DNA of 64,000 nt from Escherichia coli (GTDB taxonomy: Bacteria > Pseudomonadota > Gammaproteobacteria > Enterobacterales > Enterobacteriaceae), in NCBI RefSeq assembly GCF_046105845.1, contig NZ_CP151004.1. The stretch is one strand, 5' to 3'. The number at the start of each line of letters is the position of its first letter. Position 1 is the first letter of the stretch. Shown one piece after another: positions 18,001 to 21,000 of the stretch. A program made the position numbers.

Positions 18001-21000
18001 TAGCTGAACGAATATTGGCTTTTTTAATACGCCTTCTCTATGGATTGCTGGTTGATAACAAAATCACTACACTAACGCCGTTCTCAACGGGGTGCAACGC
18101 AGACGCGTGCGCTGAGAAAATACCCGTCGAACCTGATCCGGATAACGCCGGCGAAGGGATTTGAGGCTCCTTCTCAAGTCCTTTGCCACTCTTTTTTGAG
18201 GTGCAAAGTGTTAAAAAAATGTCTGCCCCTGCTGTTGCTGTGCACAGCGCCCGTTTTCGCTAAACCCGTTCTGACCGTCTACACCTACGACTCCTTCGCC
18301 GCCGACTGGGGTCCAGGTCCGGTGGTTAAAAAAGCCTTTGAAGCCGACTGTAATTGCGAACTGAAACTGGTGGCGCTGGAAGATGGCGTTTCGCTTCTTA
18401 ACCGTCTGCGGATGGAAGGCAAAAACAGCAAAGCCGATGTGGTGCTGGGGCTGGATAACAATCTGTTAGACGCCGCCAGTAAAACCGGACTATTTGCCAA
18501 AAGCGGCGTGGCAGCGGATGCCGTTAACGTTCCCGGCGGCTGGAATAATGACACTTTCGTACCGTTTGATTACGGCTATTTCGCCTTCGTCTATGACAAG
18601 AACAAACTGAAAAATCCGCCGCAAAGCCTGAAAGAGCTGGTTGAAAGCGATCAAAACTGGCGGGTGATTTATCAGGATCCGCGCACCAGCACGCCGGGAC
18701 TGGGTCTGCTGTTGTGGATGCAAAAAGTCTATGGCGATGACGCCCCACAAGCCTGGCAGAAACTGGCGAAGAAAACGGTCACAGTCACCAAAGGCTGGAG
18801 CGAAGCCTACGGCCTGTTTTTAAAAGGCGAAAGCGATCTGGTACTGAGTTACACCACCTCTCCGGCTTATCACATTCTCGAAGAGAAGAAAGATAACTAC
18901 GCCGCCGCGAACTTCAGCGAAGGTCACTATTTGCAAGTGGAAGTCGCCGCCCGCACCGCTGCCAGCAAACAGCCGGAGCTGGCGCAAAAATTCCTCCAGT
19001 TTATGGTTTCTCCGGCTTTTCAGAATGCGATCCCAACCGGCAACTGGATGTATCCGGTGGCAAATATCACGCTGCCAGCCGGGTTTGAACAATTGACCAA
19101 ACCGGCAACCACGCTGGAGTTCACGCCCGCCGAAGTGGCGGCACAACGTCAGGCATGGATTAGCGAATGGCAACGCGCCGTCAGCCGTTAATTCCCGGCT
19201 GGTTAATTCCAGGTGTAAGCGCCGCTACGCTTGTGGTGGCGGTTGCGCTGGCGGCGTTTCTCGCCCTGTGGTGGAACGCGCCGCAGGGTGACTGGGTGGC
19301 AATCTGGCAGGACAGCTACCTGTGGCATGTGGTGCGCTTCTCCTTCTGGCAGGCGTTTCTCTCGGCGCTACTCTCTGTCGTACCGGCGATATTCCTCGCC
19401 CGCGCGCTCTATCGCAGGCGCTTTCCGGGCCGGCTGGCGCTGTTGCGTCTGTGCGCAATGACCTTGATCCTCCCGGTGCTGGTTGCTGTTTTCGGCATTC
19501 TTAGCGTCTATGGTCGCCAGGGCTGGCTGGCATCGCTCTGCCAATCGCTCGGTCTGGAGTGGACCTTTTCGCCCTACGGCCTGCAAGGCATTTTGCTGGC
19601 CCATGTGTTTTTTAATCTGCCGATGGCGAGCCGTTTATTACTTCAGGCACTGGAAAACATTCCCGGCGAACAACGTCAACTTGCCGCCCAGCTTGGGATG
19701 CGTGGCTGGCACTTCTTTCGTTTCGTCGAATGGCCGTGGTTACGGCGACAAATCCCGCCAGTTGCTGCGCTTATCTTTATGCTCTGTTTCGCCAGCTTCG
19801 CCACCGTGTTGTCGCTGGGGGGCGGTCCGCAGGCGACCACTATCGAACTGGCTATTTATCAGGCGCTGAGTTACGACTACGATCCCACCCGCGCGGCGAT
19901 GCTGGCGCTGATCCAGATGGTTTGTTGCCTTGGGCTGGTGCTGTTGAGTCAGCGACTAAGTAAGGCCATTGCGCCCGGCACTACGCTGCTGCAAGGCTGG
20001 CGCGACCCGGACGATCGTCTGCATAGCCGCATTTGCGACACGGTGTTAATTGTGCTGGCGCTGCTGCTGTTGCTACCACCGTTACTGGCGGTGCTCGTCG
20101 ATGGGATAAATCGCCAGTTGCCGGAAGTGCTGGCGCAGCCGGTGCTGTGGCAGGCGCTGTGGACCTCGTTGCGTATTGCGCTGGCGGCAGGCGTATTATG
20201 CGTAGTGCTGACCATGATGCTGCTATGGAGCAGTCGCGAACTGCGGGCGCGACAGAAAATGCTGGCCGGTCAGGCGCTGGAGATGAGTGGCATGTTGATC
20301 CTCGCCATGCCAGGGATTGTGCTGGCAACGGGCTTCTTTTTACTGCTCAACAACACTATCGGCCTGCCGCAATCTGCTGACGGCATTGTGATTTTCACCA
20401 ATGCGTTAATGGCGATCCCTTACGCGCTGAAGGTGCTGGAAAACCCGATGCGCGATATCACCGCCCGCTACAGCATGTTATGTCAGTCGCTGGGGATTGA
20501 AGGCTGGTCGCGCTTAAAAGTGGTGGAGCTGCGCACCCTGAAACGCCCACTGGCGCTGGCACTGGCCTTTGCTTGTGTGCTATCGATTGGTGATTTTGGC
20601 GTGGTGGCGTTGTTCGGTAACGATGATTTCCGCACCCTGCCGTTTTATCTCTACCAGCAAATTGGCTCCTATCGCAGCCAGGACGGCGCGGTCACCGCGT
20701 TAATTCTGCTGCTACTCTGTTTTCTGCTGTTTACCGTGATTGAAAAACTACCGGGGCGAAATGTTAAAACTGACTGATATCACCTGGCTTTACCACCATT
20801 TGCCGATGCGTTTTAGCTTAACGGTGGAACGGGGCGAGCAGGTGGCGATCCTCGGGCCAAGCGGCGCGGGTAAAAGTACCCTGCTGAATTTGATCGCCGG
20901 TTTTCTGACGCCAGCCAGTGGTTCGCTGACTATCGACGGCGTTGATCACACCACGACGCCGCCGTCACGCCGTCCGGTATCGATGCTGTTTCAGGAGAAC

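Follow-up and report, generated by a model that had tools for sequence, protein, structure and literature searches.

The best described counterpart of the element analysed here is the thiB (tbpA) riboswitch of Escherichia coli K-12, or SroA, which occupies the same locus, belongs to the same operon and has the same start site (Berman et al. 2023, PMC10578472; Grondin et al. 2024, PMC11487190). It is a translational OFF switch whose ribosome-binding site (RBS) is occluded by a sequestering stem (PMC10578472). The linker that follows P1 has the same sequence as the P1 5' strand and can pair with the P1 3' strand, forming an antisequestering stem that was defined by mutagenesis and SHAPE-Seq; mutations favouring either pairing lock the switch OFF or ON (PMC10578472). 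Toeprints showed that 30S binding is lost upon TPP addition, repression by TPP reaches about 2-4-fold in translational and transcriptional lacZ fusions alike, and sensing is more efficient cotranscriptionally than post-transcriptionally (PMC11487190). The thiM riboswitch of E. coli shares with thiB an aptamer of the same Rfam family and an OFF switch acting through sequestration of the RBS and start codon, with a secondary effect on the mRNA level, but it belongs to another operon, has another platform sequence and is not orthologous. The E. coli thiC riboswitch likewise has a TPP aptamer, can form an alternative pairing against P1 and exerts control over both translation and transcription; it differs in holding within the riboswitch a site for Rho binding as well as a regulatory pause, whereas the two published groups (PMC10578472, PMC11487190) disagree on whether Rho matters at thiB. 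For the DNA lying upstream, the closest described system is the espY2 locus of O157:H7 (EspY family, Tobe et al. 2006 as cited in PMC6313403), which has the same sgrR-thiB site, the same junctions and a 189-aa product with a WEx5F motif.

The sequence studied here, hereafter the window, is a 64,000-nt stretch of an E. coli genome (contig NZ_CP151004.1). Its gene order (leuD, sgrS, sgrR, a 189-aa minus-strand ORF, thiB, thiP, thiQ, yabI, and araC) is the E. coli arrangement, and its leuA/leuB region matches E. coli genomes at up to 99.3%. An Rfam scan of the whole window returned three matches, namely the leu leader (10178-10327), SgrS (15086-15312, minus strand) and a single TPP riboswitch (RF00059, 18078-18177, plus strand), the last with 64.6 bits (E=2.1e-10) over the full model (1-105) and above the gathering threshold of the family (54.3 bits); the K-12 thiB leader scores 65.9 bits against the same model. 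RefSeq carries a "TPP riboswitch" feature at the homologous site 5' of thiB in E. coli strains both with and without the islet described below. The first-pass annotation had announced an intact TPP riboswitch directly after an accessory islet, and these data bear it out; all the strings that it quoted occur where it placed them. The span that it gave, 18085-18205, is slightly too short on both sides, lacking 2 nt of P1 (5') and the final 3 nt of the sequestering stem (3').

The riboswitch lies in the 5' leader of thiBPQ, 30 nt before thiB. This operon (18208-21459), which encodes a thiamine/TPP ABC transporter under riboswitch control, comprises thiB (18208-19191, GTG start), thiP (19167-20777) and thiQ (about 20761-21459), all on the plus strand and identified from ORFs, a Pfam SBP_bac_1 match and RefSeq annotation. 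From the -35 hexamer to beyond the thiB start (18043-18215), the window differs from K-12 at only three bases, all of them in P3. We assign a probability of about 0.9 to the reading that window positions 18078-18208 are the E. coli thiB (tbpA) TPP riboswitch, that is, the SroA leader, working as published for K-12. In this reading, the ligand response, the switching mechanism and the start site come from the literature, and the identity, coordinates, junctions, ancestral state and family-wide structural compatibility from the present analysis. The element is already known, being one of the best-characterised riboswitches of E. coli, and it is annotated automatically.

Transcription of the leader would begin at a weak constitutive promoter, for which we propose a putative sigma-70 core at 18045-18073 (plus strand), with -35 TTGCTG (18045-18050), a 17-nt spacer and -10 TACACT (18068-18073). 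The positions of these hexamers derive from the published start site; they match the consensus at 7 of 12 positions, and a consensus promoter scan with a threshold of 9/12 passed over them. The natural thiB promoter has been described as weak and devoid of TPP regulation (PMC11487190), and across genera of Enterobacteriaceae a -10 element (TACACT or TACAAT) keeps a constant distance from P1. Published mapping, transferred by homology, puts the start shared by SroA and thiBPQ at 18078-18080. The mutant numbering of PMC11487190 sets +1 at 18080, such that U130A makes GUG GAG, G121C falls in the Shine-Dalgarno (SD) sequence and G35C in the CUGAGA of the TPP site; the oligonucleotides of that study, which begin with GUUCUCAACGGGG, are consistent with this position. 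The numbering of PMC10578472 fits +1 at 18078, and 5' RACE in Salmonella placed the common SroA/tbpA start 129 nt before the GTG (PMC3511261), a position homologous to 18079-18080.

On the plus strand, P1 is formed by 18083-18087 paired with 18161-18165, the 3' strand of which closes the aptamer proper, with P2 at 18088-18091 paired with 18123-18126, P3 at 18094-18112, and P4 and P5 at 18132-18157. The pyrimidine sensor CTGAGA is found at 18112-18117. The string ACCTGATCCGGATAACGCCGGCGAAGGGAT occupies 18131-18160, and within it ACCTGATCCGGATAACGCCGGCG (18131-18153) agrees with the pyrophosphate-sensor consensus ACCUGAUCYGGAUAAUGCCRGCG. Two of the three differences from K-12 are P3-loop changes. 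The third, a C-to-A change at 18096, is private to this strain and removes one P3 pair, at a cost of 1.3 bits against the Rfam model and of about 3.5 kcal/mol in energy evaluation. None of the 5398 complete E. coli genomes searched contains the exact 180-nt promoter plus riboswitch of the window, the best match being 179/180, with 18096 as the one difference. Since it is in P3 that TPP aptamers are variable, aptamer function is probably kept despite 18096A. TPP binding and downstream repression have been established for the K-12 sequence (PMC10578472, PMC11487190), from which the window departs at the three P3 positions.

Downstream of the aptamer, the platform sequence is the same as in K-12 and supports two mutually exclusive stems, of which the antisequestering one shares the P1 3' strand, as in the translational platform of the thiB type; both were recovered in folds of the window. 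The antisequestering (anti-P1) stem of the ON state, seen in minimum-free-energy and centroid folds and in energy evaluation, has a core in which 18156-18166 pairs with 18172-18182 and an extension in which 18150-18155 pairs with 18183-18187, so that it spans 18150-18187. The RBS-sequestering stem of the OFF state, backed by folds and by published mutants and toeprints (PMC10578472, PMC11487190), pairs 18181-18191 (CUUUGC..CUC) with 18198-18208 (GAG..GCAAAG). It contains the SD GAGG (18198-18201) and the first base of the thiB GUG start (18208), and its loop is a T6 run (18192-18197) directly 5' of the SD. Without TPP, the P1 3' strand and adjoining aptamer bases would pair with the linker UCUCAAGUCCU, a pairing that could extend into UUGCC; the resulting antisequestering stem would break the aptamer and use up the 5' arm of the sequestering stem, leaving thiB to be translated. 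TPP bound cotranscriptionally would instead hold P1 and free the linker, whereupon CUUUGCCACUC would pair with GAGGUGCAAAG and bury both the SD and the GUG start. Blocked translation would then lower the mRNA level secondarily, an effect attributed to Rho in one of the published studies. Equilibrium folding gave no clean ON/OFF contrast, with the GAG of the SD paired in both ensembles; switching must accordingly be a matter of kinetics, the view defended in the papers.

The first-pass annotation had viewed a ttgag...ctcaa hairpin followed by a T-run as the likely expression platform. The region was well chosen, since 18161-18208 is indeed the platform, but the hairpin and the T-run belong to different stems that exclude each other: ttgaggctccttctcaa, at 18161-18177, is the apex of the antisequestering stem, with the P1 3' strand as its 5' arm, and the T-run is the loop of the sequestering stem. 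Folds place them there, in agreement with the mutagenesis and SHAPE-Seq of PMC10578472. Such an arrangement could also be read as a TPP-controlled intrinsic transcription terminator, given that a hairpin and a T6 run are both present in the leader and that the mRNA level drops with TPP (PMC11487190). Nevertheless, an intrinsic-terminator platform is a GC-rich hairpin followed immediately by a U-run in the ligand-bound state, and here the T-run begins 10 nt past the 11-bp stem, or 15 nt past the 5-bp stem of the first-pass annotation. Moreover, the hairpin has the P1 3' strand as its 5' arm and forms without TPP, the opposite of what an OFF switch would require, a terminator scan did not call it, and the T-run varies across genera. 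Single-round in vitro transcription with rising TPP yielded the full-length product only, with no intrinsic termination (PMC10578472). Geometry, polarity, scan and published transcription together largely refute the terminator, which we regard as extremely improbable.

A ThiB-based scan with one genome per species provided 80 loci, and 53 distinct enterobacterial leaders of standard length (mean identity 83%) were aligned. In these leaders both ligand-sensor sequences are essentially invariant, with one variable position each. Pairing was preserved in 99.2% of cells in P1, 100% in P2, P4 and P5, and 92.9% in P3. Only P3 displays true covariation among the aptamer helices, at five pairs, P1, P2, P4 and P5 being supported by invariance alone. 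In the platform, all cells of the sequestering stem are paired, with one covarying pair (CG/UG/UA), and 99.5% of those of the antisequestering stem, where the changes consist of 14 U-A to U-G replacements and no other kind. In one leader (L084), an A has changed to G in a way that leaves both P1 and the antisequestering stem able to pair. Covariation as an independent proof of the platform was set aside on account of the near invariance of that region across the 53 leaders. The family data are therefore compatible with the published mechanism; invariance provides most of the support for the predicted platform, and that from covariation is weak.

Immediately upstream, base-by-base comparison with K-12 and a four-way alignment delimit an islet of about 1009 bp at about 17034-18042, with boundaries ambiguous by 1-2 bp. 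Its GC content, 41.7% against 54.3% in the flanks, is atypical, and the earlier description of an AT-rich islet inserted directly before the riboswitch holds in both respects. The insertion lies between the sgrR stop codon and about position -38 of the thiB promoter, two bases before the -35 hexamer. Where the empty site of K-12 reads GGATCCA-TGA-TTGCTGG, the window reads GGATCCA-GAGTAG...(1009 bp)...CTCTATG-GATTGCTGG. The insertion has consequently changed the last codons of sgrR (15380-17038, plus strand; Pfam SgrR_N, 1.7e-43; RefSeq annotation at homologous loci), from ...GAT CCA TGA in K-12 to ...GAT CCA GAG TAG. On the thiB side, the -35 and -10 hexamers, the start site, the riboswitch and the operon are unchanged because the islet sits upstream of -38.

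The sole substantial ORF of the islet is espY2 (17268-17837, minus strand, 189 aa), named after the RefSeq product at homologous loci. The protein has the EspY-family WEx5F motif (SopD-like; WETLRNLF at aa 47), and homologues with 84-94% identity bear the names "T3SS effector EspY2" or "type III effector"; it shares 87% identity with the O157 protein and 99% with that of strain 19KM1831. Outside E. coli it has essentially no homologues, and searches of Pfam, NCBIfam and PHROGs gave no match. By motif, named homologues and RefSeq product name, it is a predicted EspY-family T3SS effector. Translocation has been reported for EspY1, EspY3 and EspY4 (PMC6313403); we found no such report for EspY2. 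The espY2 islet is itself an already known, catalogued non-LEE effector locus. Between the convergent sgrR and espY2 genes, a pattern scan detected a GC hairpin (AGGGGC...GCCCCT, 17161-17180) flanked by A and T runs, which is terminator-like on both strands and may serve as a bidirectional terminator.

About a fifth of complete E. coli genomes (1033 of 5426), the O157:H7 strain examined among them, carry the islet. Among the 80 loci of other species, neither the islet nor EspY2 was found in E. albertii, two other Escherichia species or more than 70 other Enterobacteriaceae. In E. albertii, other Escherichia species and many other genera, sgrR and thiB are tightly spaced (about 163-180 nt), and the empty-site sequence GGATCCATGATTGC is common to K-12 and the Escherichia outgroups. 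The islet is therefore a derived insertion and the empty site is ancestral. Variable presence within E. coli, absence from sister species and an otherwise conserved site are the marks of a horizontally acquired islet. No integrase or transposase gene was detected in it, and its ends showed no convincing terminal inverted or direct repeats and no target duplication. A 16-nt repeat with 81% identity (17007-17022 and 17031-17046) is probably due to chance. Compared with strain 19KM1831, the window is 99.5-100% identical over 16800-18400 and 86-89% identical at 16400-16800, a mosaic profile that suggests spread of the islet between lineages through homologous recombination of its flanks. There is also a 1544-bp form of the islet at this site, which codes for a pentapeptide-repeat protein of 278 aa; the segment unique to this form was found in 381 genomes, in 207 of them with at least 80% coverage.

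As the first-pass annotation had pointed out, the junction at about -38 brings the thiBPQ promoter next to foreign AT-rich DNA. It had further suggested read-through or antisense effects from the islet gene, which we reject on grounds of orientation: espY2 runs on the minus strand from 17837 to 17268, so that its transcription leads away from its divergent neighbour thiB, at a distance of about 240 bp, and converges on sgrR. A different matter is whether the islet alters thiBPQ transcription through the DNA upstream of -38, where GC-rich sgrR coding sequence, found in this zone in every other taxon examined, has been replaced by AT-rich DNA including TTTTTTAATA (T6AATA, 18020-18029, that is, -60 to -51). 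This A/T tract lies at the position of the distal subsite of an UP element, and the divergent espY2/thiB control region created by the insertion could recruit H-NS or virulence regulators, with the thiamine transporter being expressed differently in espY2-positive strains; upstream context could matter the more as the natural promoter is weak (PMC11487190). However, the tract resembles an UP element only in part, and a consensus scan found no promoter-like site facing thiB inside the islet. In addition, the core promoter sequence is the same in islet-bearing and islet-free strains, and a near-identical 180-nt promoter plus riboswitch allele occurs both with and without the islet; core promoter and riboswitch thus show no islet-specific changes, hence no sign of compensatory evolution. 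We consider an altered transcription of thiBPQ rather unlikely.

Another conceivable consequence concerns sgrR. If thiBPQ were substantially co-transcribed with sgrR in islet-free E. coli, as the database operon sgrR-sroA-thiBPQ implies, the main effect of the islet would be to uncouple them by 1 kb of DNA and a terminator. In K-12 the gap from the sgrR stop to the thiB start, 35 nt, is too short for a terminator, the tight sgrR-thiB spacing is conserved throughout the family, and the islet does contain a terminator-like hairpin. Nonetheless, a separate start has been mapped at the riboswitch (PMC3511261), which is preceded by the conserved -10. Because the sgrR-sroA-thiBPQ operon is a computational prediction only, and because under nitrogen depletion sgrR rises 6.5-fold in K-12 and thiQ is not co-induced (PMC8743547), uncoupling from sgrR is unlikely to be important, and we judge substantial co-transcription very unlikely.

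Compared with K-12 thiB, the window is therefore distinguished by the private 18096 C-to-A change, the two P3-loop changes and the presence of islet DNA instead of the sgrR 3' end upstream of -38, and compared with the O157:H7 espY2 locus by an EspY2 of 87% identity. Its value beyond a correct annotation is small, the modest gain being a precise map of the two junctions, one marked by the stop codon of sgrR and the other by position -38 of the thiB promoter. The islet-bearing and the empty ancestral sites nevertheless make a clean natural pair of contexts in which the influence of upstream DNA on a weak, riboswitch-controlled promoter can be tested. In about one fifth of E. coli genomes, basal transcription of the thiamine transporter may differ in level or come under the influence of H-NS or virulence regulators, a prospect that the sequence makes conceivable though quite improbable, and in which the riboswitch would act on top of an altered transcriptional input.

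The region of the window between 15400 and 18400, which carries the espY2 islet and its flanks, is a mosaic. The islet, together with approximately 200-350 bp on either side, shares 99.5-100% identity with the islet-bearing E. coli strain 19KM1831, whereas within sgrR, at 16400-16800, the identity to this strain and to all other Escherichia alleles fetched drops to 86-89%. Among 5399 E. coli genomes, the identity of the window sgrR (15400-16800) reaches a ceiling of 96.3%, in contrast with the leuA/leuB genes of the same window, for which it rises to 99.3%; within E. coli, sgrR is unusually polymorphic. 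At the 3' end of sgrR (17034-17038), the insertion has replaced the ancestral stop codon, such that the new stop, TAG, comes from the islet and the SgrR C-terminus is longer by one Glu residue (CCA GAG TAG instead of the ancestral CCA TGA).

The identical insertion site holds two islet forms. The short one (window 17034-18042, 1009 bp) encodes the 189-aa EspY2, and the long one, found at locus L003 (L003:1640-3177, 1544 bp), encodes a protein of 278 aa whose full pentapeptide-repeat C-terminus has weak, sub-threshold similarity to the repeat region of PipB2/PipB. The two forms are much less conserved in the 3' part of the gene than in its N-terminal third or the upstream region, and the 189-aa EspY2 looks like a derivative shortened at its C-terminus. 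Immediately 5' of the espY2 Shine-Dalgarno lies a perfect 6-bp inverted repeat (CTGAGTttttaACTCAG, 17852-17868), and about 30 nt farther upstream the espY2 strand (-) contains a perfect TTGACA hexamer (17894-17899), without a good -10. Both are possible control elements of espY2, situated in the divergent region that this gene has in common with thiB.

The Rfam scan that detected the TPP riboswitch of thiBPQ also retrieved, at 227.6 bits, a full-length SgrS sRNA on the - strand (15086-15312) and, at 143.1 bits, the leu operon leader on the + strand (10178-10327). At the base of P3 in the TPP aptamer, the window carries a C-to-A substitution at 18096 that was seen in none of the 5398 complete E. 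coli genomes matching the region, the best of which agreed at 179 of 180 positions; either a genuine private variant or an error in sequencing could explain it.

In about 20 species (Citrobacter, Klebsiella, Raoultella, and related ones), the P3 loop of the thiB riboswitch is enlarged by 20 to 250 nt. Such insertions occur in long leaders of 244-375 nt (L007:3753-4001, L013, L016, L028, L036, L040, L045, L051, L053, L060, L072, and L075) and in shorter ones of 148-190 nt (L012, L014, L017, L018, L064, L071, L079, and L083), and the larger of them look like ERIC/IRU repeats (GAGCATAGA.AACTATGTGACTGGGGTGAGCGA). Folding of the L007 leader showed that its insertion forms a long hairpin prolonging P3, with P2, the aptamer sequences on either side, and the platform all retained. 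In the leaders with the four largest of the tested insertions (L007, L013, L036, and L072), the match to the Rfam TPP model fell below its gathering score, so that riboswitches at these loci would escape automatic annotation.
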